Shown here: piece after piece, positions 387 through 61,655 of the stretch | How positions within the stretch are numbered: the stretch's first letter is position 1 | Layout: each line of letters starts with the position of its first letter | Assembly (NCBI GenBank): GCA_035517615.1 | Contig: DATIYM010000007.1 | Span: 36,608-100,607 of the forward strand | DNA from: Gemmatimonadales bacterium | GTDB taxonomy: Bacteria > Gemmatimonadota > Gemmatimonadetes > Gemmatimonadales > GWC2-71-9 | DNA length: 64,000 nucleotides | Direction of reading: 5' to 3' | Made by a program: the position numbers and the translations under genes | Notes under the pieces: generated by a model | The model's input: the letters and a program-made list of their open reading frames with translations, nothing else | What the model was told of the DNA's origin: nothing | Databases searched by the model: none

Positions 387-616
387 GGCCGCTCCTTGGT
401 GTGCGCTTTGTACATATACGACTCTAGGGCAACCGTGCTTGACGCGTGATGAAATGCGTCTGAAGATTCGTGGTATAAGATTTTTGCTGAGTCTAAAGGT
501 TTCTTCATAGAAGCTTTGCCTGGTCTGGCGGTTGGGCGGGATACGCTATACGGCGTGTTTTCAGCCGGCGCGGCACTCGCGCTGGGTGTGCAGTCATACC
601 ATCACGGAGAGTCCGC

Positions 617-1762
617 ATGTACCTCCCCACGTCCCACCCGTGGGCGGAGGGCGAAACGCTGGGCGCGTATCTCGAAAAACGAGGCGTGACCCGGCGGGAC
701 TTCCTCGCTTTCTGCGCCCAGATGACCACCATCCTCGGGCTTGGCGAGCTGATGACGCCGCGCGTCGCCAGCGCTCTCGCCACGGTGAAGCGTCCCAGTG
801 TGATCTGGTTATCGCTGCAGGAGTGCACCGGTTGCACTGAGTCGGTGCTGCGTACCGAAGCGCCTTCGATCGGCAATCTGGTGCTCGATCTGATATCGCT
901 GGATTTCCAGGAAAACCTCATGGCGGCCGCGGGCCACGCCGCCGAAGGCGCGCTCGCTCAGGCGATGCAGAAGAACGCCGGCGACTATCTCCTGGTCGTC
1001 ACCGGCTCGGTGCCGCTCGCCGATGGTGGGATCTACACGACTATAGCCGGCCGGCCGGTCAAGGAAATTCTCGAGGAAGGCGCGAAGGGCGCCAAGGCGG
1101 TCATCGCCGTCGGGGCGTGCGCGCACTGGGGCAACATCCAGGCATCGCGGCCGAACCCCACCGGAGCCGTGGGCGTGAGCGACATCGTGAAGGACAAGCC
1201 GGTCGTCAACATCGCCGGATGTCCTCCGATTTCCGATGTCATCACGGCCACGATCGTCCACTATCTGACGTTCGGGAAGGTGCCGGCGCTCGATTACGAC
1301 GGGCGCCCGATGTTCGCGTACGGCGCGCGGATTCACGACCAATGTCCGCGGCGCGCGCACTTCGACGCCGGCCAGTTCGTGGAGGAGTTCGATGACGAAG
1401 CGGCCCGCAAGGGCTGGTGCCTGTATCACGTGGGCTGCAAAGGGCCGGCCACCTTCTCGCCCTGTCCCATCTTCATGTGGAATGCCGGGACGAGCTGGCC
1501 GATCGGCGCGGGGCATCCCTGCATTGGCTGCACCGAGCGGCATTTCTGGGATACGATGACGCCGTTCTATGGCCGCTTGCCGGACGTGGCCGGATTCGGC
1601 GTGGAGCGCTATGCCGACACGCTCGGCGCGGCGCTGGCGATCGGGGCGGCCGCGGGCGTGGCGGCGCATGCGGTGGCCACGGGCGTGCATCAGGTTCGCG
1701 AGCGCCGCCGCCTCCCCGTCGTCGAAGGGCAGGGAAAGGGGGACAGCCATGGCGGCCACTAG
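617..1762 (+). CDS. hupS: [NiFe] hydrogenase small subunit, Tat-exported, membrane-anchored
   Basis: 381 aa. Twin-arginine signal (GVTRRDFLAFC). FeS-cluster cysteine motifs QECTGCTES, GACAHWG, GCPP, HPCIGC. Hydrophobic C-terminal anchor. GGAGAG upstream of the ATG. Confidence 0.9.
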   Translation: MYLPTSHPWAEGETLGAYLEKRGVTRRDFLAFCAQMTTILGLGELMTPRVASALATVKRPSVIWLSLQECTGCTESVLRTEAPSIGNLVLDLISLDFQENLMAAAGHAAEGALAQAMQKNAGDYLLVVTGSVPLADGGIYTTIAGRPVKEILEEGAKGAKAVIAVGACAHWGNIQASRPNPTGAVGVSDIVKDKPVVNIAGCPPISDVITATIVHYLTFGKVPALDYDGRPMFAYGARIHDQCPRRAHFDAGQFVEEFDDEAARKGWCLYHVGCKGPATFSPCPIFMWNAGTSWPIGAGHPCIGCTERHFWDTMTPFYGRLPDVAGFGVERYADTLGAALAIGAAAGVAAHAVATGVHQVRERRRLPVVEGQGKGDSHGGH

Positions 1763-3464: not shown

Positions 3465-4210
3465 GCACGACACGGCATGAAGCCGAGCCGCCCGGCGGGT
3501 TCGCACGCCGGGTTGGCCCCGCGTCGGGGAATTACCGCTGGGTGTATCTGTGGGAGTGGCCGATCCGCGCGATGCACTGGGCGGCCGTGGCGTCGATCGT
3601 CACGCTCGTCGCGACCGGCTTCTACATCGGCGCGCCGTATTTCATGACGAGCGGCGAGGCGAGCAGCCACTTCCTCATGGGCCGGATACGGTTCCTGCAC
3701 TTTGCCGCGGCCGGAGTGCTCGTCGCCACGGCGATTGTCCGTGTGTATTGGCTCATCGCCGGGAATCAGTTCGAGCGCTGGCGCGCCCTGTTCCCCATCC
3801 GCAAGCAGGATTGGATCAACCTGTTCAAGCAGATCAAGTTCTACCTGATGATCCGGCCCGAAGACGCGCCTCAATACCTCGGGCACAATCCGCTGCAGCA
3901 GCTCAGTTACACCGGCCTTTACCTCGTCGCCGGTATCATGGTGGTCACAGGGTTCGCCATGTACGGGCAGTCGCATCCGGGCGGCCTGTGGTACAACTTG
4001 TTCGGCTGGGTGGTCCCGTTTCTGGGCGGCATCCAGATCGTGCACTTCGTGCATCACGTCCTGACCTGGGTGTTTCTCATTTTCCTGCCCGTGCATTTGT
4101 ACCTCGCGCTCCGGGCCGACATTCTCGAGCGTACGGGAACGATCTCGTCGATCATCAGCGGCGGTCGATTCGTGAAGGCGGACGTGGAGTATGTCGATCA
4201 GCCGAAATGA
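3461..4210 (+). CDS. hupC: Ni/Fe-hydrogenase b-type cytochrome subunit
   Basis: ATGA overlap with the large-subunit stop. MSTTRHEAEPP..., polytopic membrane protein with conserved His residues (HWAAV, HFAAA, HFVHHVLTW), typical of HyaC/HupC. Confidence 0.8.
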   Translation: MSTTRHEAEPPGGFARRVGPASGNYRWVYLWEWPIRAMHWAAVASIVTLVATGFYIGAPYFMTSGEASSHFLMGRIRFLHFAAAGVLVATAIVRVYWLIAGNQFERWRALFPIRKQDWINLFKQIKFYLMIRPEDAPQYLGHNPLQQLSYTGLYLVAGIMVVTGFAMYGQSHPGGLWYNLFGWVVPFLGGIQIVHFVHHVLTWVFLIFLPVHLYLALRADILERTGTISSIISGGRFVKADVEYVDQPK

Positions 4211-4712
4211 CGTGAGACGCGGGACTGTGGTGATCGGTCTCGGCAATCCGATCATGGGGGACGATGGGATCGGCATCGCGGCGCTCGAGCGGCTCCGCGA
4301 CACTTGGGATGTCCCGGACGACGTCGAGCTGGTGGACGGGGGTACGTGGGGGCTCACCCTGCTGCCGATCATCGAAGACGCGGGCGCGGTGCTGCTGATC
4401 GACGCGATCGATACTGGGTCAGCCCCGGGGACCGACGCGGTCATCCTCCGCGATCAGCTTCCCAAACACCTCGCGACCAAAGTCTCGCCGCATCAAGTCG
4501 ATCTCCAAGACGTGCTCGCACTGGCGGAATTGCGAGGCACGCTACCCGACCGTACCGTGGCCATTGGCCTGCAGCCCGCGATCGTGGAGATGACGAGCGG
4601 GTTGAGCGACGCGCTCCGCGCGCGGGTCGATCACTTGGTGCTGCTGGTCGTGGGGATGCTCGAGAGCTGGGGACACCGGTGCACAGCGAAGCCGGAGCCC
4701 GCGCGTGCATGA
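4191..4712 (+). CDS. hupD: Hydrogenase maturation endopeptidase (HyaD/HupD/HybD family)
   Basis: VVIGLGNPIMGDDGIGIAAL N-terminal motif and DGGTWG. The start could also be the in-frame GTG at 4212, immediately after the cytochrome b stop. Confidence 0.85.
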   Translation: MSISRNDVRRGTVVIGLGNPIMGDDGIGIAALERLRDTWDVPDDVELVDGGTWGLTLLPIIEDAGAVLLIDAIDTGSAPGTDAVILRDQLPKHLATKVSPHQVDLQDVLALAELRGTLPDRTVAIGLQPAIVEMTSGLSDALRARVDHLVLLVVGMLESWGHRCTAKPEPARA

Positions 4713-4956
4713 AATGAGTATCGCCCTCGAGGTCTGCCGGATCGCCGAGACGCAGGCGCCCCCGGAGCAGGTCGTACGGGTGGGTGTCGAAGTCGGCGAC
4801 GACGCCGGGGTCGAGGTGTCGAATCTCGAATTTTGTCTCGAGGCGTTGCTCAACGAGCCGCCGTTCGCGGGGGCGACGCCCCTGATCAGCCGAGTCCCGG
4901 GAGACGTGCTGCGCGTGAGCTACCTGGATGTGGACGATGGCCGTCCGGACGATTGA
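4705..4956 (+). CDS. hypA: HypA-like nickel insertion protein, short form lacking the zinc-ribbon cysteines
   Basis: GTG start gives the canonical MHEMS nickel-binding N-terminus. Only 83 aa, with no CxxC...CxxC motifs. Lies between the protease gene and hypB with overlaps on both sides. Confidence 0.7.
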   Translation: MHEMSIALEVCRIAETQAPPEQVVRVGVEVGDDAGVEVSNLEFCLEALLNEPPFAGATPLISRVPGDVLRVSYLDVDDGRPDD

Positions 4957-5602
4957 AGTCCGGGAGCGAGTGCTCGCGAAGAACGACGAGCTCGCCGAGG
5001 ATGTGCGGCGGCGGCTTGGCGAAGCTCGGGTGCGCTCGTTCAATCTCGTGTCCTCGCCCGGGTCGGGAAAAACGACCCTGCTCGAGCGAACGCTGGCCGC
5101 CCTGGGGGACGAGATCGGGATCGCAGTCATCACGGGCGACGTGCAGACGCAAAACGACGCCGACCGGCTCGCGCGGCACACCGACCGTCTGGTGCAGGCG
5201 GTCATCACGAATGGCGCGTGTCATCTCGATGCGCGTCAGGTGGCGACGGCGCTCGAGGCGATCGATCTCTCCGCGATCGAGCTGCTGTTCATCGAGAACG
5301 TCGGGAACCTCGTTTGTCCCGCGGCCTGGGACCTGGGGGAGGACGCCAAGATCGTGATCCTTTCGGTGACCGAAGGAGAGGATAAGCCGCTCAAATACCC
5401 GAGCATGTTTCAGCAGGCACGCTACGCTGTGCTCAATAAGATGGATTTGCTGCCGTACGCGCCCTTCGACGTGAAGCAGGCGGTCGGCTTCGCCCGGCAG
5501 GTAAACCCGGAACTCGAGTTCTTCTATACGTCGGCCCTGGCTCCGAACGGCATGGACGAGTGGTTCGGCTTCCTAAGGTCGCAGGTGCGAGGCATGTTCT
5601 AG
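4928..5602 (+). CDS. hypB: Hydrogenase nickel incorporation GTPase HypB
   Basis: P-loop SSPGSGKTTLLE, ENVGNLVCPA and NKMDL GTPase motifs. No His-rich or CxxCGC N-terminus. Confidence 0.9.
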   Translation: MWTMAVRTIEVRERVLAKNDELAEDVRRRLGEARVRSFNLVSSPGSGKTTLLERTLAALGDEIGIAVITGDVQTQNDADRLARHTDRLVQAVITNGACHLDARQVATALEAIDLSAIELLFIENVGNLVCPAAWDLGEDAKIVILSVTEGEDKPLKYPSMFQQARYAVLNKMDLLPYAPFDVKQAVGFARQVNPELEFFYTSALAPNGMDEWFGFLRSQVRGMF

Positions 5603-5604
5603 CC

Positions 5605-5901
5605 ATGTGCCTCGGCGTACCGGGAAAGGTCGTTGCGGTGAACGGGCAGCTCGCCACAGTGGATTTCTGGGGCGTGCGCCGCGAGACGCGGCTCGACGTG
5701 ATCGATGAGCCGGTCGGTCCCGGCGATTACATCCTGAATCATGTCGGATTCGCGATCCGGAAGATTCCCGCCGCGGATATCCAGGAGACGCTCGCGCTGT
5801 ACGAGCTGCTGCTGAAAGAGGCCGAAGGCGACATGATGGCGAGCGACATCCGCGGTGAAATCAGCGCAGCCCGCGAGCGGGGCGAGGGATCCAATGCTTG
5901 A
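5605..5901 (+). CDS. hypC: Hydrogenase assembly chaperone HypC/HupF
   Basis: MCLGVPGKVV N-terminus with the essential Cys2, from ATG at 5605. The track ORF begins upstream at 5560. Confidence 0.88.
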   Translation: MCLGVPGKVVAVNGQLATVDFWGVRRETRLDVIDEPVGPGDYILNHVGFAIRKIPAADIQETLALYELLLKEAEGDMMASDIRGEISAARERGEGSNA

Positions 5902-7030
5902 GACGCTGCGGACGACCGAAGCGGCCGGCCAGCTCCGGTTTCGTGACCCCGCAAAGGCAAAGGAGCTGGCGCAGGCGCTCGACAAGGTCACGGCCGACGT
6001 GGGGCGCGCGCCCGTGTCGGTCATGCACGTGTGCGGCAGCCACGAGCAATCGATCGCCAAATTCGGCCTGCGCTCGATTCTGCCGAAGACGTTGAATGTG
6101 ATCATGGGGCCGGGCTGCCCGGTGTGCGTCACCGACGTCCCCGAGGTGGATGAAGCCGTCGTGCTCGCACAGGACGGCCTCCGGATCGCGACCTACGGCG
6201 ACATGCTGAAAGTGCCGGGGACGGCGCTGTCGCTCGCGGACGCCCAGTCCCATGGCGCGCACATCGACGTCGTCTACAGCGCAGCCGAAGCCGTGGAGCT
6301 GGCGCGTGACACCACGGACGAGGTGGTGTTCTTCGCGAGCGGTTTCGAGACCACGGCCGTCGCGACGGCGGCAGTCGTGCTGGCCGAACCACCGGCGAAC
6401 TTCTCGGTGCTTTCGGCGCACAAGTACATCCCGCCGGTCATGGAGATCGTGGCCGAGATGCCGGGAACGAAAGTGGAAGGCTTCCTTGCGGCCGGGCATG
6501 CGGCCACGATTACCGGGTCGGCGATCTTCGACCGGTTTGTCGACCGTCATCACATTCCGGTCGTGGTCGCCGGATTCGAGCCGCTCGACATTCTCGCCGG
6601 GCTCGTGAAGCTCGTGGAGCTGGTTCGCGACGGAACGCCGCGGGTGGAGAACATGTACCCGCGCTGCGTGACACCGCTTGGCAATCGCAACGCGCAGCAG
6701 CAATTGTGGCGCGTGTTCCGTACGGTGGGCGGGATGTGGCGCGGGATCGCGCACGTGCCGAACGGGAACCTCAGGCTGCGTGATGAGTTCGCGCGCGTGG
6801 ACACGCGGAAGAAGTTCCGGATCGACGTGAAGCGGCTTTGGAACAATGCGCCGTCTACGCTCACGCAACTGTGCATGTGCGGAGACATCATGGCGGGAAT
6901 CGCATCGCCCTCGCATTGCTCGCTGTTCGGCAAGGAATGCACACCCGACAATCCGGTGGGCGCGTGCATGGTGTCGAGCGAGGGGACGTGCCGGATCTGG
7001 CACCAGTACGGAGGCCATCCGGACCTGTGA
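5894..7030 (+). CDS. hypD: Hydrogenase formation protein HypD
   Basis: Motifs CGSHE, GPGCPVC, GFETT and PVGACMVSSEGTC. ATG at 5894 overlaps the hypC stop. Confidence 0.9.
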   Translation: MLETLRTTEAAGQLRFRDPAKAKELAQALDKVTADVGRAPVSVMHVCGSHEQSIAKFGLRSILPKTLNVIMGPGCPVCVTDVPEVDEAVVLAQDGLRIATYGDMLKVPGTALSLADAQSHGAHIDVVYSAAEAVELARDTTDEVVFFASGFETTAVATAAVVLAEPPANFSVLSAHKYIPPVMEIVAEMPGTKVEGFLAAGHAATITGSAIFDRFVDRHHIPVVVAGFEPLDILAGLVKLVELVRDGTPRVENMYPRCVTPLGNRNAQQQLWRVFRTVGGMWRGIAHVPNGNLRLRDEFARVDTRKKFRIDVKRLWNNAPSTLTQLCMCGDIMAGIASPSHCSLFGKECTPDNPVGACMVSSEGTCRIWHQYGGHPDL

Positions 7031-22164: not shown

Positions 22165-22782
22165 CTAACCGCTGCTCTCCGCCACGGTCCGCATGACGTC
22201 GGTCGTGGTCACGATACCGACCAGCTTGCTATGATCCATGACCACCGCGCGGTGGATCCGCTGCTTCAGCATGTACGCGGCGGCGTCGCGAACCGTGGTC
22301 TCGGGAGACACGGCCCGGACGCCACGACTCATTGCCTCGCCCACCGTGTGCTCGGCAAGGACGTCCCATTCAGGCCCGGCCAGCTCCTTGAATCGCTCCG
22401 TCACGTCCGCTCCGGCGTCGGACCACAATTCGCCGAAGTATGCACTGGGCGGAGCATCTTCGGCGTCCGGCTCCCACTCCACCGGCTCCGCTTCTTCGAC
22501 GTCGTCCTCCTCGACTGGCTGGGTGCGCTCGGTGGGGACGCCGGGAATATCGGCTTCGAACGCGAGGACGTCGTTGGCAGACAGCGTGCCCACCACTCGG
22601 TCACCGGCGACCACCGGCGCGCCCGTGATACGGTGAGTCGAGAGCAACTCGACGGCGTCACGCAGGGTGAGCTCGGCGTCGAGGACCAGCACCTCGCTGG
22701 ACATGATGTCTCGCACGACGGGCCCCGTGCCGGGGGCTTTGGGGTGCTGGGTGCGCCTGGCGGTTTCGTGTTTCATGACCAT
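22165..22782 (-). CDS. CBS-pair domain protein with acidic linker
   Basis: Two CBS motifs (VRDIMSSEVLVLD...GAPVV; VGEAMSRGVRAVSPE...RAVVMD...VGIVTTTDV) separated by a Glu/Asp-rich insert. Confidence 0.8.
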   Translation of the reverse strand: MVMKHETARRTQHPKAPGTGPVVRDIMSSEVLVLDAELTLRDAVELLSTHRITGAPVVAGDRVVGTLSANDVLAFEADIPGVPTERTQPVEEDDVEEAEPVEWEPDAEDAPPSAYFGELWSDAGADVTERFKELAGPEWDVLAEHTVGEAMSRGVRAVSPETTVRDAAAYMLKQRIHRAVVMDHSKLVGIVTTTDVMRTVAESSG

Positions 22783-22861
22783 CCTCCCGAATCAAGGGTC
22801 CCGGTTCAGGAGTCAACCTGCACGAGCCGCCCTAAAGGCTTGGTGAAGGCTCCGTGAGCGA

Positions 22862-29863: not shown

Positions 29864-30694
29864 ATGAACACAATACTGCTGGCCGCGCACGGCGGCGAGA
29901 GTGCCGAAGGGGCGGTTCGCGTCGCCGCCAAGCTCGCGGATCGACTCAAGACGAAGCTCAACGTGCTCTGCGTCCTCGAGCCGCTCCCGGTTGTGGACTA
30001 CGGCTATTTGGCGACGGTCCCGCCAACCCAGGAGCAGTACGACATGCTATCGGAAGCACTGCGTGGCGCAGTGACCAACCAGTTCCGCCGCTGCGGACAA
30101 GCCGAGTGCGCCCCACTCGTCGAGATCGGGTTTGCAGCGCCGGAAATTGCCCGTGCGGCACGAGAGCAGGGTGCGGCGTTGACCGTCATGGGCCTCGGTC
30201 CCCACCATGCACTCGATCGGGCACTCGGTGGCGAGACGGCGCTGCAGCTGGTGCAGATCGCGAGCACTCCGGTGCTCGCGCTTCCGGGCACCGTGGCCGA
30301 CATCCCACGACGGGTGATGGCCGCGATCGATTTCACGCCAACGAGCATTCGTGCCGCCCGCGTGCCGCTTCTGTGGTTGGGGGCCGGTGACGTACTACAG
30401 CTCGTCCACGTCAGTGCCGCTGAAGCGTCCGGCTCGGACGCTCGACTGGAAAAACTCAAAGCCGAGATGGCGGCGGAAACGCGAGCAACCATCGAAACCC
30501 ACGAGCTGCGGGGAGAGGCTGCGCGCGCGCTGCTCGAGCATGCGGCCGCGTCCCGCAGCGATTTGATTACCGCGGGTACGCACGGCTACGGCATCTGGAA
30601 GCGCCTGACCCTGGGAAGCGTCGCTTCGAAACTGGTTCGTCTTTCGCCCGTGGGCGTATTGATCGCCCCGCTCGGTTCGGTGTCCCAGGCCTGA
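29864..30694 (+). CDS. Tandem universal stress protein (2 x UspA domains)
   Basis: 276 aa with two Usp domains. The C-terminal ATP-binding motif is GTHGYGIWKRLTLGSVASKLV. Confidence 0.85.
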   Translation: MNTILLAAHGGESAEGAVRVAAKLADRLKTKLNVLCVLEPLPVVDYGYLATVPPTQEQYDMLSEALRGAVTNQFRRCGQAECAPLVEIGFAAPEIARAAREQGAALTVMGLGPHHALDRALGGETALQLVQIASTPVLALPGTVADIPRRVMAAIDFTPTSIRAARVPLLWLGAGDVLQLVHVSAAEASGSDARLEKLKAEMAAETRATIETHELRGEAARALLEHAAASRSDLITAGTHGYGIWKRLTLGSVASKLVRLSPVGVLIAPLGSVSQA

Positions 30695-30700
30695 CTGCTG

Positions 30701-31489
30701 CTATTCGGGCCAGCGCAGCAGCGCGGCGAGTCCATCGATCTCGGCCGTCATATTGGGATCGTGCACCACGACCACCGCCGCACCCTGAGCCAGCGCATCG
30801 CCCACGGCGGCGCGGACCAGATCCCCAACCGGAAGCGCGAGCCCTTCCTCCTCGCATTCCGAGCGTGCCAGCGCGAGCCGGCGGGAACGCGTGCAGCGAA
30901 ATCCGGAGAGGCGCGTGCCATCCGCGACCAGCAGCGTCCGAACCTGTCCGTGCCAGAGCGCATGCGTGGTTTCGCGGACCCCGTTCGTGGAGCGTCCCGT
31001 TCCCAACCCGTGCCGCATCGCGGCCACGAGCGCGCGTTCCGTCGCCGGACGCTGCCTAATTCGCGCGGCGTCGACCGCGCTGCGAACGATACTCGGGGTG
31101 ACCGTGGTCGGATTCAGGCGCACGGCGCCGATCAGCCGGTTCGCGAGTGGAGCGGGAAGCGCGCGTACCAGCGCCGACACGGCGGTCTTGGGACCCGCCA
31201 CGAGCAGCGGCTGGTGCGACCGCCGCTCGATCTGCTCGATCCGGCCCAGCACGTTACGGAGATGCCGGCGCTCCTCTTCGTCCACTCGGCCGTGGTACTC
31301 TTGTTCGCCCCAACCGGGTCCACCCTGCCGGTCGCTGTGGAAACGGCCGCCCCGCATGGCGGGAGAATCGAGGCAGGGTAGCTCGGTCGCCTCCCGCTCG
31401 TTGACCTCGAAGAACCGGGCGTGGGCGCGATCGAGAACAATGGCGAGTACCCGCTCGCTCGCTGCATTCGTCGCGGTCGTCATGGTCAC
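30701..31489 (-). CDS. eRF1/Pelota-like protein (bacterial aeRF1 / host-attachment-type)
   Basis: N-terminal [16 protein letters not shown] and [18 protein letters not shown] (host-attachment-like). The C-terminal half has [11 protein letters not shown]...AAVVVVHDP...[10 protein letters not shown], resembling eRF1 domain 3. The start overlaps the groEL stop (GTG 31489 or ATG 31483). Confidence 0.55.
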
Positions 31490-33108
31490 ATCTCCTCTCC
31501 GGCCCCAACGGGCGCCGGTAGCTTCGGTTCGGGAATCTCGGTGAGCGTCGCTTCCGTCAGGAGCAGGATGCTCGCGACGGACACCGCATTTTCGAGAGCA
31601 ATGCGAACTACCTTGGTTGGATCGATGATGCCCGCGTCGAGAAGATTGACGTACGTCCCACGCGCCGCATCGAAGCCAAAGTCGCCCGTGCCCGCGCGCA
31701 TGCGATCGACGACCACCCCGCCATCCACGGCCGAATTCTCCGCGATCTGCCGCGTGGGGATCTCGAGCGCATGCCGGAGGATCAGCATGCCGGTGCGCTC
31801 GTCCCCAGCGGCCTTCTCGGCCTCGCGCTCGAGCGGTTCGATCGCCCGGAGCAGGGAGAGCCCGCCTCCCGGCACGATGCCCTCGGCAATGGCGGCCTTG
31901 GTGGCGCTGATGGCGTCATCGAAGGCTTCCTTCCGGCTCTTGAGCTCCGTCTCCGACGGCGCCCCTACGCGGATCACCGCCACTCCACCGGCCAGCTTGG
32001 CCAGACGTTCCTCGAGCTTTTCCCGATCGTAGTCAGAGGTAGCGTCCTTGATCTGTTTACGCAGCTCGTCACAGCGGCCGGTGATGACGGGTTTCGCCCC
32101 AACGCCCCCGATGATCGTCGTATCCTCTCGGTCGGAGACCACGCGCTCGGCCTGGCCCAGGTCGGCGAGTGAAACGTGCTCGAGCTTGACGCCGATCTCT
32201 TCGGCGATGAGCCGTCCGCCGGTGAGAATCGCCATGTCCTCGAGCATGGCTTTGCGGCGATCGCCAAATCCGGGGGCCTTCACGGCGATACAACCGAGGG
32301 TGCCGCGGATCTTGTTCACGACCAGCGTGGCGAGGGCTTCCCCCTCCACGTCCTCGGCGACAACCAGGAGTCCGCGGCCTTCCTTGGCGACCTGCTCGAG
32401 CAGCGGGAGCAGATCCTTGAGGTTCGTGATGCGTTTCTCGTACAGCAACAGATACGGGTGCTCGAGCGCCGCCTCCATTTTCGTGGGATCCGTCACGAAG
32501 TAGGGCGAGAGATAGCCGCGGTCGAATTGCATCCCCTTGACGACTTCGAGCGCCGTTTCGGTGCCCTTGGCCTCTTCGACGGTAATCGCGCCTTCAGGGC
32601 CCACTTTCTCCACCGCGTCGGCGACCAGCTCGCCGATGGCGGGATCGTTGTGAGCGGAAATAGCCGCGACCTGAGCCTTCTCACGCCGAGTCTTGACCGG
32701 CTGTGAGAGCTGTTTGATCGAATCGACAGTGAGATGTAGGGCGCGATCGAGCCCGCGTTTCAAATCGATGGCGCTCGCACCAGCCGCGACGTTCTTGAGC
32801 CCTTCCGCGAAGATCGCATGGGCCAACAGCGTGGCGGTCGTGGTTCCATCGCCCACGGCGTCCCCGGTTCGAGAAGCGGCCTCGCGGAGCACCTGCGCGC
32901 CGAGGTTCTCCTCCGGGTCCTTCAAGTCGACCTCTTTGGCGATGGTGACTCCGTCGTTGCAGACAAGGGGCGTGCCCCACTTCTTTTCGATCAGCACGCA
33001 CTTCGATTTCGGGCCCAGGGTCACGCGCACGGCGTCGGCCAAGGTGGTGGCCCCGCGCAGGACTTTTTCCCGCGCCGCGGCCTCGAAGGTCAACTGTTTG
33101 TGTGCCAT
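31486..33108 (-). CDS. groEL: Chaperonin GroEL (divergent paralog, no adjacent groES)
   Basis: 540 aa. [28 protein letters not shown]. The C-terminus is ...[10 protein letters not shown] rather than a GGM repeat. Confidence 0.92.
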
Positions 33109-33117
33109 GCGCTCTCC

Positions 33118-33675
33118 TTAGCCCTGCGTCTTTGCCGATTGGCGGGCGGCGAGCCGGACGCTCGAGGCCTGCGGGCCCAGGTCCCCCGGCTCTTCGTGGA
33201 AGTGGACGAGACTGCCGACGTCCAGACGGCCAAATGCGTCATCCAGCACGCTGTGCGCGTCGAAGTAGATGTCACGGCCGTCCGCCGATTCGAGAAATCC
33301 GTAGCCACTGAGCGGGTAGTATTGCGTCACCGTTCCGACCGGCTCGTGCTCGTGCTGTTTCACGGCACCGCGCTGCACGCGGGCGAAGTCCTCGAGACGC
33401 CGCCGCGCGGCGTGGAATGCCTCGTCGAGCGCCGTCCGCAGCTCGTTGGCAGGTTGGCGATTGACGACGACTTCCCCTCCCGGCAACCCCAGATCGAGGC
33501 GCACCTGGTATTGATCGCTATCGCTCAGATGCCTGCGTCGTGGGATCTCGATCGTAACGCCGCAGCTCGTGATACGGCCGTATGCATGATTCAGCCGCTC
33601 GATGCGTTCGCGGACGTCTCGCTCGATTTCCGGAGTGAGGGAGATGGATTTGGCCACAATGCGGGGCGGCAACAT
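33118..33675 (-). CDS. Ribosome hibernation factor (HPF/RaiA, S30AE) fused to a cold-shock domain
   Basis: GGAGG RBS 5 nt before ATG (cat at 33673-33675). The N-terminal half, ISLTPEIERDVRERIERLNHAYGRITSCGVTIE...YQVRLDLGLPGGEVVV...ALDEAFHAARRRLEDF, fits the S30AE fold. The C-terminal half, GTVTQYYPLSGYGFLESADGRDIYFDAHSV...GPQASSVR, fits a CSD. The track start at 33840 is an upstream extension. Confidence 0.7.
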   Translation of the reverse strand: MLPPRIVAKSISLTPEIERDVRERIERLNHAYGRITSCGVTIEIPRRRHLSDSDQYQVRLDLGLPGGEVVVNRQPANELRTALDEAFHAARRRLEDFARVQRGAVKQHEHEPVGTVTQYYPLSGYGFLESADGRDIYFDAHSVLDDAFGRLDVGSLVHFHEEPGDLGPQASSVRLAARQSAKTQG

Positions 33676-33826
33676 GGAACCTCCGTAATTGGATTCCCCG
33701 GTAACCTGCCCCACGAGCCATGAAGAATCGCTGAGATCGCCTGCAAGCTTCTCTCGCATCGCCTTCACCGTCCCCTCACGGGGCCGATGCCAGCATTCGA
33801 AAGTCTCATTCACCCGGAGGATTCGT

Positions 33827-34507
33827 ATGGCAATCGACATCGAGCCACAGGCCGACGCTCTGGAACGCGAGGTCTACAAGGAGCTCGTGTGGGAGCCCTC
33901 GGTGGACGCATTGAACGTCGACGTGATGGGGCGCCCAAATGGCGTGATCGTGCTGACGGGAGTGGTCCGGAACTACGCCGAGAAGGTGACGGCCGAACGG
34001 GCGGCGCGGCGCGTCAAAGGCGTGCAATCGGTGGTGAACGAACTCGATGTGCGCCTCGCGAGCTCACACGAGCGGAGCGACGTGGATTTGGCGGACGCCG
34101 TCGTGCAAGCGCTCGAGTGGGACGTGCTCGTTCCCCCGAGGCGGATTCAGGCGCGCGTCGCGGACGGCTGCGTGCGTCTCGAGGGGCAGGTCGATTGGAA
34201 CTACCAGCGCGAGGCGGCCGCAGAAGCGGTGCACCGCCTGGCCGGCGTCAAAGGCGTGACCAATCTGATCAAGGTCTCGTCTCAGCTGACCGTTCCCAAC
34301 GTCAAGGCGCTCATCGAGGCCGCGCTGCGGCGCTCCGCCGAGCTGGACGCCCAGGCGATCGACGTCGACGTTCAGGGACGGGTCGTGATGCTTCGCGGCA
34401 GGGTGCAGTCGTGGGCGGAGCGTGACGCAGCGGAGACGGCAGCCTGGTCGGCCCCCGGGGTCACGGGCGTGCTGGACGAGATCGAAGTCGCGCCGGCCGA
34501 GGCGTAA
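33827..34507 (+). CDS. BON-domain protein (multiple BON repeats, OsmY-like)
   Basis: GGAGG RBS before ATG 33827. Repeated pattern V.V..G.V.L.G.V.....K..AE.AA..V.GV..V.NEL.V. Paralog at 54658..55341. Confidence 0.8.
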   Translation: MAIDIEPQADALEREVYKELVWEPSVDALNVDVMGRPNGVIVLTGVVRNYAEKVTAERAARRVKGVQSVVNELDVRLASSHERSDVDLADAVVQALEWDVLVPPRRIQARVADGCVRLEGQVDWNYQREAAAEAVHRLAGVKGVTNLIKVSSQLTVPNVKALIEAALRRSAELDAQAIDVDVQGRVVMLRGRVQSWAERDAAETAAWSAPGVTGVLDEIEVAPAEA

Positions 34508-36725: not shown

Positions 36726-37961
36726 TCAGAGTCCGTGAGCTCGATCGGCGCGGGCGGGAAATCGTGGAATGCGCACCATGAACGTCGAGCCGTTGCCAGG
36801 CGTGCTCTCGAGCGCGATCTCGCCTCCCATCATCCGCGCCAGCCGGCGTGACAACGTCAGGGCCAATCCAGTTCCTGCGATCTCCTGCTGTGATCCAACG
36901 TAGGCGTTGAACACTTGCTCGTGGCGTTCCGGCGCAATGCCCGGCCCCTGATCGGCAATACAGAAGGACAGCGTCTCGTCGGTGGCCCGCACGGTGATCT
37001 CGACACGGGCCGTCGGAGGACTGTGTTGAATCGCGTTCCGTAGGAGATTCACGAGGATTTGCCGGACGCGCTTGCAGTCGACCAGGGCAGGGATCGCAGT
37101 GTGAATTGCCGGGATTTCCAGCCGCACACCCGCGCTATCAGCCATGGGCCCGACCGTCCGCAGCGCTTCTGCGAGAATGCTGTCGGCGCCGGCCTCCTCA
37201 GGCGTGATCCGCAGTCGTCCCGCATCCAGGCGCGAGAGATCGAGCAGGTCGTTCAGCAGCTGCACCGAATCCTCGGCTGCTTCCATGGCGTGCAGCGCGG
37301 CGGGAGGTGGCGACTTCCCGCTGCCGCGTACCAGAAGGTCGAGCCACCCGTACACCCCCGTGAGCGCATTGCGCAGTTCGTGATTCATCATCGCGTAGAA
37401 CCGGTCACGCGAAGACTGAAACTCCCGCAGCTGTTGCATCAGCCGGGCATTTTCGATGGCAACGCCGGCTTTGCGCGCCAGCAGCATCGCGATCCGTTCG
37501 TCCTCGGCGCTGAATTCGTCCGCCCCCTGCTTCTCCGTGAGGTAGAGATTTCCGAACACTCGGTGTTGCGCCATGATCGGCACGCCCAGAAACGATCGCA
37601 TGGCCGGATGATGCGACGGGAATCCGTACCGTGCGGCATGCTGCTGGATATCGGCGATGCGCACGGGACGCGGGTCGCGAATCACGACGCCCAGCAGTCC
37701 GTGCCCGCTGGGCAACGCCCCAATTCGGTCGCGCTGTGTGGCCGTTAACCCCGATGTGACAAACTCCACCAGCGCCGTGTGTTGTTCGTTGAGCACTCCC
37801 AGCGCCGCATACCGCGCGCCCACGATATCCCGGGCGGCGTCCGCGACGCGTTGCAACACGCCGCCCAGCGTATGCTCGGCGAAGATATCGAGGCCCGCGG
37901 AAAGCAGTCGCTCGAGCTGCGCTCGCGGTTGGAGCTGTGTGGTGACTCGTGGTGGGGCCAT
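36726..37961 (-). CDS. Soluble GAF-HisKA-HATPase sensor histidine kinase, DevS/DosT-like GAF
   Basis: 411 aa with no TM segments. GAF region: ARYAALGVL...LVEFVTSGL...LPSGHGLLG...YGFPSHHPAMRSFLGVPI...VFGNLYLTEK. H-box MMNHELRNALT. HATPase N/G boxes. Confidence 0.8.
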   Translation of the reverse strand: MAPPRVTTQLQPRAQLERLLSAGLDIFAEHTLGGVLQRVADAARDIVGARYAALGVLNEQHTALVEFVTSGLTATQRDRIGALPSGHGLLGVVIRDPRPVRIADIQQHAARYGFPSHHPAMRSFLGVPIMAQHRVFGNLYLTEKQGADEFSAEDERIAMLLARKAGVAIENARLMQQLREFQSSRDRFYAMMNHELRNALTGVYGWLDLLVRGSGKSPPPAALHAMEAAEDSVQLLNDLLDLSRLDAGRLRITPEEAGADSILAEALRTVGPMADSAGVRLEIPAIHTAIPALVDCKRVRQILVNLLRNAIQHSPPTARVEITVRATDETLSFCIADQGPGIAPERHEQVFNAYVGSQQEIAGTGLALTLSRRLARMMGGEIALESTPGNGSTFMVRIPRFPARADRAHGL

Positions 37962-44542: not shown

Positions 44543-44983
44543 ATGTCAGCAGGTCGGATTTGCAGTCGGACCGTCATCACGGCGGTTCCCGATGAGTCGG
44601 TGCGAGAGGCCGCACAGCGAATGGCGCATCATGGCGTGGGTACGCTGGTCGTGGTGAAGGCGGGCGGCAGCGGGAATGAGCCCATCGGCATCGTGACGGA
44701 TCGCGACATTGCGATGCGGTGCGTAGCGGAGGGCCGCGACCCTGATACGCTGGCCGTGTCGAGCATCATGGCGCAGCCGTTGCGCGTGATCGATCAGGAC
44801 ATGGCGATCGAGCACGCGATCGTGCGCATGGCCGAGGCGGGAGCGCGCCGGCTGGTCGTGATCGGCAAAGGCAACACTCTGGTGGGTATCCTCAGTCTCG
44901 ACGACATCCTCGAGCTTCTATCGGATGAGTTCAGTCCGATTCATCGCCTGCTGGAGCATCAGGAGCCAATCTTGACGAGCTGA
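44543..44983 (+). CDS. CBS-pair domain protein
   Basis: 146 aa with two CBS motifs (HHGVGTLVVV...GIVTDRDI; GARRLVVI...VGILSLDDI). Confidence 0.85.
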   Translation: MSAGRICSRTVITAVPDESVREAAQRMAHHGVGTLVVVKAGGSGNEPIGIVTDRDIAMRCVAEGRDPDTLAVSSIMAQPLRVIDQDMAIEHAIVRMAEAGARRLVVIGKGNTLVGILSLDDILELLSDEFSPIHRLLEHQEPILTS

Positions 44984-47930: not shown

Positions 47931-47995
47931 GAAACACTCAGGGCGATTTCAGAAAGGCTTCACGGGAGAGCGGGTAGTGTGGGGCATCAGCTCCC

Positions 47996-51481: not shown

Positions 51482-52040
51482 TGGACCAGGTCACGGGTCG
51501 CGATCAGGCAGTCCTCGAGACCATTTATCACCGCCGCGCGGTGCGCTCCTTTGGCCCGGACCGGATCGATGAGCAGACCATCCGCACCTTGCTCGCGGCC
51601 GCTGTGCAGGCTCCCACGGCGATGCATCTCGAGCCCTGGACGTTCGTCGTGATTCAGGACCGCGCCGTCCTCGAGCGCTACTCGAATCGCGCTGTCGCGA
51701 TGGTCAAGCCGGATGCCGGGCTGACCCGACTCGTCGCGGCAGGCGGCGACATCTTCCATGGGGCCGGAACGTTGATCGTAATCTGCGGAAAGCCCCTGGG
51801 AGCGTTCGTGGTCGCCGATTGCTGGCTCGCCGGCGAGAACCTGATGCTGGCGGCGGACGCGCTCGGACTCGGAACTTGCTGTATCGGGTTCGCGGTCCCG
51901 CTGTTGAATGCCGCGGAGGTGAAGCGCGAACTCGGCATTCCGGCCGATGTCACTGCCGTAGCGCCAATCATCGTGGGAGTCCCGGCGGACATCGCGCCGC
52001 CTGTATCGCGCAAGCCTCCAGACATTCTGCGGTGGGTCCG

Positions 52041-52044
<4 letters not shown>
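51481..52044 (+). CDS. Nitroreductase-family FMN oxidoreductase (intact)
   Basis: 187 aa. RRAVRSF...APTAMHLEPWTFVVI...GLGTCCIGF. Confidence 0.82.
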
Positions 52045-54539
<2,495 letters not shown>

Positions 54540-54657: not shown

Positions 54658-55341
54658 ATGCAAAGCGAACTCGAGCTGAAACGACGGGTACGGGACGAGC
54701 TGGGCGGGGAGCCATCGCTCCATCCCGCGCACATTAGTGTTTTCACGGATGATGGCGCGGTAACGCTGCAGGGGACGGTGACGAGCTATGCACAGAAGGT
54801 CGCGGCCGAGGCCGTGTCGCACCGGGTCAGGGATGTGCGCAGCGTGAAGAACGCGCTCGACGTGGTCGTTCCAATCGCCAATCGCCGCAGCGACGCCGAG
54901 ATCACGCAGGCGGTCACGCGATTGTTACAGTGGAATGCAACGATTCCTCGGGATAAGATCCAGGTGCGGGTCGTGGACGGGTGGATCGAGTTGAATGGCA
55001 CGGTCGAGTGGCAGTATCAACGGGTGGCGGCGGAAGCGGCCGTGCAACCGGTACTCGGCGTGCGTGGTGTGAGCAACCTGATCGCGGTGAAGCCCCGTAC
55101 GCCGGCCGGGCAAATCCGGGAGCGTATCACCGCGGCGCTCAAGCGGCGTGCCGATCTCGCGACACGCGATGCGCAGGATGTCGAAGTAGCAGCCGACGGC
55201 AGCGTAGTAACGCTTCGCGGGAAGGTGCATTCCTGGTCGGACCGTGCGCTGATCGAAGCAGCCGCGTGGGGCGCGCCCGGCGTCGCAAAGGTCGAGGATG
55301 AATTGGAAGTCGTATCCGAAGAACCGGAGCTCGCGTTTTAG
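54658..55341 (+). CDS. BON-domain protein (paralog of 33827..34507)
   Basis: AGAGGAGGG RBS before ATG 54658. Same repeated BON pattern, and the two proteins align end to end. Confidence 0.8.
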   Translation: MQSELELKRRVRDELGGEPSLHPAHISVFTDDGAVTLQGTVTSYAQKVAAEAVSHRVRDVRSVKNALDVVVPIANRRSDAEITQAVTRLLQWNATIPRDKIQVRVVDGWIELNGTVEWQYQRVAAEAAVQPVLGVRGVSNLIAVKPRTPAGQIRERITAALKRRADLATRDAQDVEVAADGSVVTLRGKVHSWSDRALIEAAAWGAPGVAKVEDELEVVSEEPELAF

Positions 55342-58893: not shown

Positions 58894-59817
58894 CTATGTA
58901 AATGCCGGCTCCGCCCTCGATACTCCGCTTCTCTCCGCTGCCTTGACCGTCACCGGCGCATGGGCCGGCACCACGAGCAATGATGTGGGCAGCTGATTCA
59001 AGAGCCGTTCGGTGACGCTGCCGATCAAGAGGCGATCGACGAAGCCCTTGCCATGCGAGCCTACAACGAGCAGGTCCGCGTGCCAGTCGGCAACTTCGCG
59101 CGCGATCGCGTCGAACGCGAGTCCGTGCCGCGTGATCTTCTCGGCGCTGGGATCGAGCACCAGCGGCCACACCTCGCGCTTCACGTGCTCGTCCAGCAGG
59201 GTGTAATACGACTCCACGTCGTAGGTCGGCGCGTCCGGAAGGATCGGCAGCGGCTCGAACGCGCACATGACGCGCAGCTCGGCTCCCAGCAGCGTCGCGA
59301 ACCGCTCCGCGGTCTTGATCGTCGGCTGCGCCGCATAGGACTGATCCGCGGCCACGAGAATCCGCCGAATCGGCGCGCGCAGCCCGCCCGTTACGAACAG
59401 CGGCACGTCGGTGGTGCGCGCAACATTCAGGGCGGTGCTTCCCGCGAACCAGCGCTCGAGCAGCGTATGATGTTTGCCGCCGAGCACGATCAATCCGGCA
59501 TCGAGCTCGGTCGCGACTTCCTTCAGCACCCAGGTCGGACGCCCGGGACGAATCATGAGGTGCTCCGCAAGCTCGGGTGGAACGATTCCCCACAGTCCAT
59601 GCTGCACTTCGTCCTTCGCCTGGGCCAGGTGCGATTCGCTCAATTCCTGCGCCTGCTCCGGCAGTTCCGCCATCGCGAAGGCGGTCAATACGTCACGCGC
59701 GGCGTGAACGAGCTGGCAGCTCGTTCCCGCGGTGTTCGCCAAGTTGGCGCCGACCGCGCCAGCCCATGCCGCCTCCGGCGAGCTGTCGATACCGACCACA
59801 ATGGGTTTCCACGCCAT
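58894..59817 (-). CDS. Tandem universal stress protein
   Basis: GGAGGG RBS before ATG (cat at 59815-59817). Two Usp domains with GGKHHTLLERWFAGSTALNV and GSHGKGFVDRLLIGSVTERLL. Confidence 0.85.
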   Translation of the reverse strand: MAWKPIVVGIDSSPEAAWAGAVGANLANTAGTSCQLVHAARDVLTAFAMAELPEQAQELSESHLAQAKDEVQHGLWGIVPPELAEHLMIRPGRPTWVLKEVATELDAGLIVLGGKHHTLLERWFAGSTALNVARTTDVPLFVTGGLRAPIRRILVAADQSYAAQPTIKTAERFATLLGAELRVMCAFEPLPILPDAPTYDVESYYTLLDEHVKREVWPLVLDPSAEKITRHGLAFDAIAREVADWHADLLVVGSHGKGFVDRLLIGSVTERLLNQLPTSLLVVPAHAPVTVKAAERSGVSRAEPAFT

Positions 59818-59984
59818 AATGCCCTCCGGAAGAAGTTCCTCACATCGTCTTCGTGTCCTGAACTTCGCGCGCGCACGATGAAGCGAACGTGATGATTGCT
59901 CCAAGAATTCTAGAGGCGGGGTTCATCTCGACTTCATGGCGACGGACGGATATTCCGATCGGACACAGGGGAGGGAGCGGTGCC

Positions 59985-60386
59985 ATGAACGTCGCGGAGC
60001 TGATGCACACCGAGTTGAAGACGATCAGTGTCGATTCCACCATAGGCGATGCCGTGGACGCCTTGGCGGAAGCGCAGGTATCGGCGCTTCCGGTAATCGA
60101 CCGGTTTGGACGCGCTGTCGGCGTGATCTCGACCAAGGATATTCTGAACGCGGAGGCCACGTTTGCGGGGCAGCAGGAACGGGATATACTGTTCGAGCAC
60201 ACGACCGTGCTGGAGATCATGTCCGCCTGGCCGCCGACCATCGGCCCGGAAATCTCGGTTCAGGAAGCGGCGAAACAAATGCTCTATTTCGACGTGCAAC
60301 GGCTGTTCGTCGAGGTGGAGGGAGCCCTGGTGGGCGTGATCTCGCAGAGCGACATCGTCTCGGCCGTGGCGCGCGCCAAGACATAA
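59985..60386 (+). CDS. CBS-pair domain protein
   Basis: GGGGAGGGAG RBS before ATG 59985. 133 aa with two CBS motifs. Confidence 0.85.
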   Translation: MNVAELMHTELKTISVDSTIGDAVDALAEAQVSALPVIDRFGRAVGVISTKDILNAEATFAGQQERDILFEHTTVLEIMSAWPPTIGPEISVQEAAKQMLYFDVQRLFVEVEGALVGVISQSDIVSAVARAKT

Positions 60387-60413
60387 TCGCCTGCGACGAC
60401 GTATTTTTGGAGT

Positions 60414-61655
60414 GTGCAGGGGAACGATTCCACTGAGGTGGCACGCGTTCGCCGCCGGTTCGAGCTGCTGCTCGATGCCGGCGTCGCGATCTTCTCGGAG
60501 CACACGCTCGCGGCGGTGCTGCAGCGGGTGGTCGACTCCGCTCGAGAAGTGGTCGGTGCCAAGTACGCTGCCCTGGGCGTGCTGTCGGCCGACGGGAAGG
60601 GCCTGTCCGAGTTCGTTACTTCTGGCCTCTCGGACGCCGAGCGCGCGCATATCGGCGACCTGCCGAGTGGTCGCGGGTTGCTCGGTCTCGTGATCCGCGA
60701 GCCCCATCCGATTCGTTCCGCCGATATCAAACACCACCCCCAGCGCTTCGGATTCCCGCCCAATCATCCGCCGATGCAATCGTTTCTCGGCGTCCCGGTG
60801 GCTGTGCAGGGTTGCGTATTCGGCAACCTGTATCTCACCGAAAAGGTTGGAGGGACTGAATTCACCGGCGAAGACGAGGCGATCGCCGTCTTCCTCGCGG
60901 CCAAGGCGGCTGTGGCGGTTGAAAACGCGCGACTCCACGAGAAAAGACAGGAATTGTTGCAGCAGGTGCAGGGCATGCAGCGCCAGCGCGATCTGTTCTT
61001 CGCGATGATGAACCATGAGCTACGCAACGCGCTCACCGGCGTGTATGGCTGGGCGGAGCGGCTCGTGCGCGGCAAGGGAAGCCCGGAATCGAAGGGCCAG
61101 GCGGCTCAGGAGGTCTACGAAGCCGCGGAACGGACCATCACACTGCTCAACAATTTTCTCGATCTCACCCGACTCGATGCGGGGAAAGTGCGCCCCGTAT
61201 TCCGCGATCTCGATGTGCACGGCGAGATCGGCCGGGTGCTCGCGAACGTGCGTCCGGCCGCGGAGGCGAAGCGGATCCTGCTGCACGAAGAGTACGCGAA
61301 CGGCATCGCCCTGGTGCGTACCGATCCCGTGCGCCTGGAGCAGATTCTCGTCAACCTGATGAGCAACGCGATCCGCCACAGTCCGGAAGGGGGCACGATC
61401 ACCGTACGCGCTGAGTCGCAGAATGGCGAGGTCCTGTTTTGCGTGCGGGATCAGGGCCCCGGCATTCCACTCGAGCTGCAGAGCCGCATCTTCGAGCCCT
61501 TCGAGCGGTTCGATCCACATTCCGGTTTGGGCACCGGGCTTGGGCTTCCCGTGTCGCGCCGCCTGGCGGAAGTGTTGGGGGGCCGGCTGACCGTGGAGAG
61601 CGCCCCCGGCGCGGGAGCGGCGTTCACCCTCACCCTGCCGGTGTCCGCTGCATGA
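60414..61655 (+). CDS. Soluble GAF-HisKA-HATPase sensor histidine kinase, DevS/DosT-like GAF (paralog of 36726..37961)
   Basis: AKYAALGVL...LSEFVTSGL...LPSGRGLLG...FGFPPNHPPMQSFLGVPV...VFGNLYLTEK. H-box MMNHELRNALT. G-boxes GTGLGLPV. Confidence 0.8.
   Translation: MQGNDSTEVARVRRRFELLLDAGVAIFSEHTLAAVLQRVVDSAREVVGAKYAALGVLSADGKGLSEFVTSGLSDAERAHIGDLPSGRGLLGLVIREPHPIRSADIKHHPQRFGFPPNHPPMQSFLGVPVAVQGCVFGNLYLTEKVGGTEFTGEDEAIAVFLAAKAAVAVENARLHEKRQELLQQVQGMQRQRDLFFAMMNHELRNALTGVYGWAERLVRGKGSPESKGQAAQEVYEAAERTITLLNNFLDLTRLDAGKVRPVFRDLDVHGEIGRVLANVRPAAEAKRILLHEEYANGIALVRTDPVRLEQILVNLMSNAIRHSPEGGTITVRAESQNGEVLFCVRDQGPGIPLELQSRIFEPFERFDPHSGLGTGLGLPVSRRLAEVLGGRLTVESAPGAGAAFTLTLPVSAA

Follow-up and report, generated by a model that had tools for sequence, protein, structure and literature searches.

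Within a 64-kb stretch of DNA from an uncultured soil Gemmatimonadales bacterium, hereafter the window, three genes follow a single conserved upstream element and are packed in a manner suited to coupled translation. They encode a putative HPFcold-type ribosome hibernation factor (an S30AE domain fused to a cold-shock domain, CSD), a GroEL chaperonin of the PRK12851 subfamily and a predicted Balon-family protein lacking the N domain, and GroEL and Balon remain paired throughout a Gemmatimonadales clade, in several different gene orders. Taken together, the results presented below make it probable that this locus is a stress- or dormancy-induced ribosome hibernation operon, in which GroEL is co-made as a stress chaperonin.

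Organization of the locus

An open reading frame (ORF) check places the three genes at 33675-33118, 33108-31486 and 31483/31489-30701 of the window, head to tail on the minus strand, as an initial annotation made from the sequence had proposed (Table 1). That annotation had also placed the TAA stop codon of the HPFcold gene within the ribosome-binding site of groEL, 9 nt ahead of its ATG, and the sequence bears this out: the TAA occupies 33118-33120 and is followed by nine bases (GGAGAGCGC) and by the groEL ATG at 33108. The spacing between these two genes is also short, 13 nt, in a related locus (L167). The end of groEL reads GGA GAG GAG ATG TGA (31486) CC ATG, and the downstream gene can be read either from a GTG at 31489, which overlaps the groEL stop codon as annotated (262 aa), or from an ATG at 31483, 2 nt past the stop, which is the start adopted by public gene calls (260 aa). 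Tail codons of groEL containing GGAGG, followed by TGATG or TGA(N1-2)ATG, occur in 14 other distinct GroEL-to-baeRF junctions, 15 including the window, and in these relatives the Shine-Dalgarno sequence of the Balon gene is formed by the final GroEL codons (GGAGAGGAG, GCGGAGG...).

Public assemblies start the HPFcold gene 28 residues earlier (213 aa; window 33676-33759), whereas the alignment of 18 HPFcold family members favors the MLPPRI start (185 aa). Since both the family alignment and the GGAGG site back the 185-aa start, the deposited 213-aa start is probably miscalled.

The first gene encodes an HPFcold-type protein

Pfam models for S30AE (PF02482; 39 bits against a cut-off of 23.7) and for the CSD (29.9 bits against 27) both match the first gene product. 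A profile of its family aligns over the full length (residues 1-181; 9t0z_9) with the 183-aa chain of PDB entries 9t0z/9tze (E 1.7e-58), and the window protein shares 34% identity with the 9t0z chain by BLASTP (E 3e-36). On its AlphaFold2 (AF2) model (predicted local distance difference test, pLDDT, 86.5), Foldseek matches the S30AE part to RaiA (8rd8_D, TMt ~0.84) as well as to HPF structures, and the cold-shock part to Csp structures (TMt 0.81-0.88). Conservation within the family is concentrated in the CSD, whose YGF and YF motifs have invariant aromatic residues. The fusion of an S30AE/RaiA-type domain to a cold-shock OB fold posited by the initial annotation is hence recovered by Pfam, by the PDB profile and by Foldseek alike.

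The 9t0z/9tze chain is Coxiella burnetii CBU_0020, an HPFcold protein solved on the ribosome, where the S30AE domain fills the path of mRNA and tRNA at the decoding centre of the 30S subunit and the CSD is wrapped around the 3' end of 16S rRNA, which holds the anti-Shine-Dalgarno sequence (Nat Commun 2026, PMC13392368). By sequence, the first gene product is identified as HPFcold, sharing with the Coxiella protein the same two-domain architecture, a similar length and full-length homology. The window protein differs in that it comes from another phylum and heads an operon that also carries GroEL, and its putative ribosome binding is assigned only by analogy. Chimeras of HPF and Csp have been described, and the chimeric hpf genes often adjoin Balon (bioRxiv 10.1101/2025.11.04.686544); the window gene likewise lies beside a Balon-type gene.

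A profile scan of a genome collection with a 7-sequence alignment detected the HPFcold fusion in at least 486 species genomes, distributed across the Gemmatimonadota, Binatia, Myxococcota, Planctomycetota, Nitrospirota, Acidobacteriota, Cyanobacteria and Proteobacteria. Among 93 ORFs flanking HPFcold across phyla (L001-L080), the most frequent same-strand neighbors are phosphoribosyltransferases (10), CBS proteins (7), universal stress proteins (USPs; 6), FtsX (5), PRPP-synthetase-like proteins (4), Hsp20 (3) and GYD proteins (3). In the 80 closest genomic relatives, the gene directly beside HPFcold is thus seldom GroEL or Balon and mostly encodes a phosphoribosyltransferase, a CBS protein, a USP, FtsX or Hsp20. 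Several additional observations concern these loci. In some Gemmatimonadales loci the HPF is a short S30AE-only protein without a CSD, which precedes GroEL–Balon in L096 (4039-4353) and lies directly before Balon in L087 (575-880); the CSD is therefore not obligatory for the cluster. A gene for a YbaK-type aminoacyl-tRNA editing domain lies directly upstream of HPFcold in the deltaproteobacterial L050 (5457-5954) and a second one inside the HPFcold island of the Terriglobia locus L033 (3584-4102), a possible recurrent translation-related partner. About eight tandem copies of GTCGGTAAGG lie directly upstream of HPFcold in L017 (~5700-5800), from a groundwater Gemmatimonadetes metagenome-assembled genome.

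The second gene encodes an intact group I chaperonin without groES

The second gene product matches Cpn60 (Pfam, 242.8 bits), TIGR02348 (744 bits against a cut-off of 582) and NF009489 (PRK12851; 820 bits, some 80 above other GroEL models). Comparison with GroEL structures indicates that it keeps the motif of the ATP site as well as the apical residues for GroES and substrate binding (including LATLVV). These features identify it as an intact group I chaperonin of the PRK12851 subfamily and, because the nucleotide and apical residues are kept, it should work as a GroES-dependent chaperonin.

Two peculiarities that the initial annotation had pointed out in this GroEL, the missing Gly-Met tail and the missing groES partner, extend well beyond the window. 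The tail is acidic, Pro-rich and devoid of GGM repeats; among the 120 closest homologs (79-99% identity, nearly all 539-540 aa), a PEPK...EE[MYF]-type tail is found in 119 and GGM repeats in none. A GroES probe validated on PDB GroES proteins detected no GroES-like ORF in the window or in 168 related loci (1.43 Mb), even at E<=10, and the context suggests that GroES is supplied from elsewhere in the genome.

Stand-alone GroEL paralogs without groES are known in mycobacteria (GroEL1/GroEL2), cyanobacteria (groEL2), Myxococcus and rhizobia. The window protein resembles them in being a group I chaperonin with intact ATPase and apical residues, no groES and a non-GGM tail, but it lies between two hibernation genes and its tail codons double as the downstream ribosome-binding site. 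Further groES-less GroELs were found 2-4 kb from HPFcold in Terriglobia, Pirellulales, deltaproteobacterial and Blastocatellia genomes (Table 1). These four share an MxHKQxLF start and a non-GGM tail, with Hsp20 nearby in three of the four loci, which hints at a cross-phylum PRK12851 GroEL subfamily tied to stress islands. No published function for this subfamily was found in the literature searched.

The third gene encodes a Balon relative without the N domain

Four Pfam models match the third gene product above their cut-offs, baeRF_family3 (42.5 bits), baeRF_family10 (37.7), baeRF_family2 (34.9) and Host_attach (33.5), while eRF1_3 scores 18.3 bits, below its cut-off of 25.8. Among NCBIfam hibernation-factor models, Rv2629_fam scores 54.6 bits (equivalog cut-off, 320), MSMEG_1130_fam 49.0 (480) and AOC03_06830_fam, which we take to represent the Psychrobacter Balon family, 30.2 (330). 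These models align only from about their position 119-166 on, with their C-terminal two thirds, and the sequence of the protein marks it as a distant, shortened Balon relative and not an equivalog. A profile of the gene family matches Pelota, Rv2629 and Msmeg1130 chains in the PDB. The top Foldseek matches of its AF2 model (pLDDT 89) are 8v9j_z (E 5e-14, TMq 0.73), 8v9l_z, 8rdw_B and 8v9k_z, with ribosome-bound Msmeg1130, Balon and Rv2629 interleaved with aRF1 and placed ahead of eRF1 and Pelota. Structure and profile alignments reach the C terminus of Rv2629/Msmeg1130, including the ...GLAALLR[FW] ending.

Profile and structure comparisons of the 185-aa and 262-aa proteins have thus found the S30AE, CSD and eRF1/Pelota-like folds that the initial annotation had named. 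For the third gene product, both the host-attachment-like N-terminal part and the eRF1 domain-3-like C-terminal part stand as folds, the Pfam eRF1_3 match taken alone being sub-threshold. On sequence and model, this gene product is assigned to the Balon family in a form reduced to the middle and C-terminal domains.

The protein begins at the middle domain, with groEL filling the DNA immediately upstream, and when full-length relatives were used to build a hidden Markov model (HMM) of the N domain, it had no match in any frame of the window. The possibility that the N-less form is an artefact of gene calling was ruled out on the grounds that only 2 nt separate the groEL stop from the start and that an N-domain signal is missing from every frame. 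The family falls into two length classes, of ~260 aa and ~385-400 aa, and N-less forms are a minority among ~957 relatives (50%-identity representative library).

In the published structures, the HP motif of the Balon N domain touches A1492 and A1913, the lasso loop of the middle domain lies by the peptidyl-transferase centre and the C domain binds EF-Tu; both P. urativorans Balon and its mycobacterial homologs bind the A site together with EF-Tu on vacant or translating 70S ribosomes (Nature 2024, PMC10901736). Like Balon, Rv2629 and Msmeg1130, the window protein has the middle and C-terminal folds without GGQ or NIKS, shares the C-terminal ...AALLR[FW] and adjoins an HPF/RaiA-type gene in a stress island. 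It departs from the Balon family in lacking the whole N domain, with its HP motif, in having its own invariant loop (D-x4-PGxGE) and in being translationally coupled to GroEL, a neighbor absent from PMC10901736 and PMC6514570. By analogy, its C domain may bind EF-Tu.

The family-specific loop, with the motif RGG[KR]FHSDRxxxPGWGE, is placed by the AF2 model between strand 32-39 and helix 58-86. In 42 homologs D51, P56, G57, G59 and E60 are invariant and R44, G46, F48, H49 and R52 nearly so, while Q53 is unconserved, being replaced by A/H/R/G/N. Because the protein has no GGQ, an unconserved loop Q and no N domain to carry NIKS, it looks, as judged from sequence and model, like a non-catalytic A-site binder and not a release factor.

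It is highly unlikely that the third gene encodes instead a catalytic or rescue-type release factor and that the operon serves translation recovery. Membership of the aeRF1/Pelota superfamily speaks for such a role, as do the above-threshold match to baeRF_family10, a family singled out as possibly catalytic through a conserved glutamine (Burroughs & Aravind, PMC6514570), and the presence of the loop Q (DRQGG) in most short forms. The same glutamine is nonetheless replaced in relatives, GGQ is missing, there is no N domain for sensing a codon or the mRNA channel, the closest structures are non-catalytic Balons and the partner gene encodes a hibernation factor that blocks the mRNA path. With GGQ and the N domain both absent, a catalytic release factor was ruled out as the leading view. 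Of the translation shutdown and recovery module that the initial annotation had envisaged, the silencing part is retained, given the HPFcold and Balon families, and the release, rescue and recovery part is not.

Conservation and evolutionary history of the cluster

To place the locus in context, 164 related loci were annotated with local HMMs and larger contigs were also looked up. The gene order is conserved in related genomes, the same arrangement recurring in independent Gemmatimonadales contigs. HPFcold–GroEL–Balon is found in the window, L001/L089, L095, L003 (with full-length Balon) and L096 (with the HPF lacking a CSD), and GroEL–Balon in L165, L166, L093, L138 and many short contigs. 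HPFcold–Balon is present in L004, L101 and L168 and, with full-length Balon, in L106, L111, L113, L117 and L124. In L167 Balon is separated from HPFcold–GroEL, and in L046 the order is Balon–GroEL.

Co-occurrence of the three genes across phyla, a possibility raised by the initial annotation, did not emerge: among the loci sampled the three-gene order is confined to the Gemmatimonadales and the trio was not seen outside them. Pan-phylum conservation was ruled out, as among the 80 closest HPFcold loci Balon-like genes were seen only in Gemmatimonadales, and so were directly adjacent GroEL genes.

An N-less gene has GroEL immediately before it in 18 of 26 informative cases, and a full-length gene in 3 of 45 (Fisher p = 4e-8), a value that overstates the association because the N-less forms all make up one clade in the neighbor-joining tree. 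On this tree, the GroEL-linked full-length forms of L003 and L098 branch first, followed by L114 in the sister clade. The simplest history is that an HPFcold–Balon pair came first, that GroEL then joined it and that the N domain was subsequently lost once.

Two side observations on Balon-like genes were made in these loci. An archease gene overlaps the start of the full-length Balon-like gene in L167 (4480-6212). In L165 (1-1218), the genes for RtcB and then a short S30AE protein precede GroEL–Balon at a distance of 5 kb, which echoes the published Balon–RtcB association.

A conserved upstream element and a stress-related genomic context

The upstream element (Table 1) is phased, and its end lies 43 nt ahead of the HPFcold ATG. 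It recurs with the same phasing upstream of HPFcold in eight related Gemmatimonadales loci (L001, L003, L004, L095, L096, L101, L002 and L030) and upstream of GroEL in two loci where GroEL is the first gene (L165 and L166). Its core, YTCA-N6-YTTCAYS, occurs six times in the window against 0.35 expected, and five of the six sites lie 40-80 nt upstream of starts, namely those of HPFcold, of a flavodoxin-like and a lipoprotein-like gene and of two CBS-pair genes. This distribution suggests that the shared motif marks a common regulon of the stress or dormancy type, under which the operon may be induced.

Neither a sigma-70 consensus nor an intrinsic terminator was found above chance in 30400-34000, and no CIRCE heat-shock operator was detected in the window with up to 3 mismatches allowed. 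Rfam and tRNA scans of the whole window likewise returned nothing, and no recognisable leader or thermometer RNA. A single transcript would fit the locus, because no copy of the motif, sigma-70 match or terminator lies between the three genes. On the downstream side, the 6 nt between the stop codons of the Balon-like and tandem-USP genes (30695-30700) hold no terminator-like hairpin.

These data bear on whether the GroEL might be the main housekeeping chaperonin of the lineage, a stand-alone protein like actinobacterial groEL2 whose position reflects inherited synteny without function. The protein is fully canonical-looking and exceeds the equivalog cut-off, and stand-alone essential groEL genes do exist in other phyla. 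We nevertheless consider this unlikely: the GGM tail, typical of housekeeping GroELs, is absent throughout the clade, the window groEL lies downstream of HPFcold without a separate promoter motif, the stress-regulon element precedes GroEL where GroEL comes first, the linkage survives several rearrangements and the same GroEL subfamily is found in HPFcold/Hsp20/USP islands of other phyla.

Elsewhere, the window carries a [NiFe]-hydrogenase large subunit gene, several USPs, two BON/OsmY-like genes, three CBS-pair proteins, a pyruvate phosphate dikinase and two GAF-HisKA histidine kinases with no adjacent response regulator seen. It also holds candidate hyp maturation genes, judged from their N-termini. 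Related loci add nitroreductases, dodecin, RtcB and archease. As a whole, the window looks like a persistence island.

The DosR dormancy regulon of mycobacteria comprises USPs, the CBS protein Hrp1, nitroreductases, the HPF Rv0079 and the Balon Rv2629, and the DosR box is palindromic. Hypoxia is reported to induce both Rv2629 (PMC10901736) and the HPF isoform Rv0079 (bioRxiv 10.1101/2025.11.04.686544). In content, the window region and related loci are similar to this regulon, with USP, CBS-pair, nitroreductase, HPF-type and Balon-type genes and GAF histidine kinases. They differ in belonging to another phylum, in a cis element that is phased and direct-repeat-like, in the inclusion of GroEL and in that no response regulator was identified.

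Table 1. Coordinates of the operon and of associated features; positions are those of the window unless a related locus is named
Feature	Position	Strand	Basis or remark
HPFcold-type hibernation factor (putative), 185 aa	33118..33675	-	S30AE/RaiA ~33361-33675 and cold-shock domain ~33148-33342
Shine-Dalgarno GGAGG of HPFcold gene	33680..33684	-	Sequence; 5 nt ahead of ATG 33675
HPFcold stop/groEL ribosome-binding junction, TAAGGAGAGCGC ahead of ATG	33109..33120	-	Sequence; 9-nt gap
GroEL chaperonin, 540 aa, PRK12851 subfamily, non-GGM acidic tail	31486..33108	-	NF009489/TIGR02348 scores
groEL stop/Balon-like start junction, GGAGAGGAGATGTGACCATG; final groEL codons are the Shine-Dalgarno sequence of the next gene	31481..31500	-	Sequence
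Predicted Balon/baeRF-1 family protein without N domain	30701..31483	-	Middle RNase-H-like domain ~31100-31456 and eRF1_3/Pelota-like C domain ~30710-31006
Conserved loop of Balon-like protein, at topological position of GGQ/lasso loop	31304..31357	-	Alignment and AF2 model
Upstream element AGAAGCTTGCA-N9-CTCAG-N6-CTTCATG, probable operon promoter/regulator site	33719..33757	-	Conservation across loci
BON/OsmY-like gene, divergent	33827..34507	+	Pfam BON x3; public gene call
Tandem-USP gene, convergent	29864..30694	+	Pfam Usp 107 bits; stop 6 nt from Balon-like stop
Core motif sites	448-464(-), 3449-3465(-), 22842-22858(-), 33719-33735(-), 47948-47964(+), 59922-59938(+)
Persistence-island genes	1569-7030, 22165-22782, 36726-37961, 44543-44983, 51819-54539, 54673-55320, 58894-61655
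GroELs without groES near HPFcold in other phyla	L033 793-2415, L040 2420-4042, L050 1284-2894, L079 2864-4483		Best model NF009489/PRK12851

Mechanistic interpretation

Solved homologs suggest how the hibernation operon could act. The S30AE domain of HPFcold would plug the mRNA/tRNA path at the 30S decoding centre, and its CSD would hold, and so protect, the anti-Shine-Dalgarno 3' end of 16S rRNA. The two-domain Balon-like protein would bind in the A site, towards the 50S subunit, with its conserved loop next to the peptidyl-transferase centre and EF-Tu probably contacting its C domain. Since it has no N domain, it would leave the decoding centre to HPFcold. As suggested by context only, GroEL would be co-induced and would keep the proteome foldable while translation is off, without acting on the ribosome.

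Several points weigh against this interpretation. The Balon-like protein falls short of the NCBIfam equivalog cut-offs (54.6 against 320 bits), and it lacks the N domain whose HP motif makes the decoding-centre contact of Balon; with that domain absent, binding to the ribosome in the manner of Balon is an extrapolation. A purely general role for GroEL may also be too modest, because the coupled GroEL–Balon pairing is tighter than would be expected of a generic stress neighbor.

This last point leads to the main rival explanation, which we regard as improbable but less so than the release-factor and housekeeping alternatives: that GroEL is mechanistically tied to the N-less Balon, folding, storing or handing over the Balon-like protein or its complex with EF-Tu, or loading or unloading hibernating ribosomes. 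With the same low probability, the PRK12851 GroEL would be a working part of a Balon-type hibernation system that became coupled to Balon in a Gemmatimonadales lineage, where Balon then shed its decoding-centre domain. The chaperonin would act at the ribosome, holding, delivering or removing the two-domain Balon or the complex of that protein with EF-Tu, and HPFcold dormancy islands in other phyla may be served by the same subfamily.

Such a tie gains from the stop/start coupling, with GroEL tail codons acting as Shine-Dalgarno sequence, in 15 distinct junctions, and from a pairing that holds despite divergence of GroEL to 79% and of the Balon-like protein to ~41-45% identity. Clustering of the genes has also survived several rearrangements, loss of the N domain was a single event within the GroEL-linked lineage, and four other phyla have groES-less GroELs of the PRK12851 type 2-4 kb from HPFcold. 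Set against this, the association statistics are phylogenetically non-independent, the N-less forms being a single clade, and GroEL adjacency has been lost for the N-less genes of L004, L101, L168, L099, L104 and L115. The substrate and GroES surface of GroEL is unaltered, Hsp20 and DnaK are known as generic stress companions of Balon (PMC10901736) and no literature support for a GroEL–Balon tie was found. We therefore retain the reading of the locus as a hibernation operon with a co-made chaperonin.

Discussion

The core translation-shutdown module seen here is already known, since the adjacency of HPF and baeRF-1 genes (Burroughs & Aravind 2019, PMC6514570), that of Balon and RaiA (2024, PMC10901736), HPF–Csp chimeras beside Balon and the structure of HPFcold have all been published. 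The initial annotation had regarded the three-gene unit as uncharacterised, and this holds for the GroEL member and its coupling to an N-less Balon but not for the HPF–Balon pairing. GroEL is not mentioned in the Balon paper or its text supplements (PMC10901736) or in the 2019 paper (PMC6514570), nothing relevant to a GroEL–Balon link was found in the literature searched, and the N-less architecture, with middle and C-terminal domains only, is absent from the architectures explicitly listed in PMC6514570. Among the papers searched, Balon, GroEL and hibernation are named together only in a review of mycobacterial (p)ppGpp synthetases, one to three times each. The papers searched contain neither the coupling of GroEL to Balon across a Gemmatimonadales clade in several gene orders, nor a single clade of N-less Balons arising within the GroEL-linked lineage, nor a shared upstream motif marking a dormancy-type regulon. 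What is particular to this lineage is the coupling to GroEL and the shortening of Balon, which do not make the locus a new class of system.

Should GroEL prove to be no more than a stress chaperone induced along with the rest, the locus would amount to a compact but otherwise ordinary stress operon. The hibernation field is growing fast, with Balon described in 2024, HPF chimeras following in 2025 and a structure of HPFcold in 2026, and the window brings both new factor types together in one coupled operon of an environmental phylum. A natural Balon without its supposed decoding-centre anchor offers a test of which Balon contacts are essential and of whether HPFcold substitutes for the missing one. 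The translational register of GroEL with Balon would, if this tie is functional, constitute a direct link between proteostasis and ribosome storage. Lastly, the upstream motif provides a handle on a dormancy regulon in the Gemmatimonadales, a widespread soil group with few cultured members.

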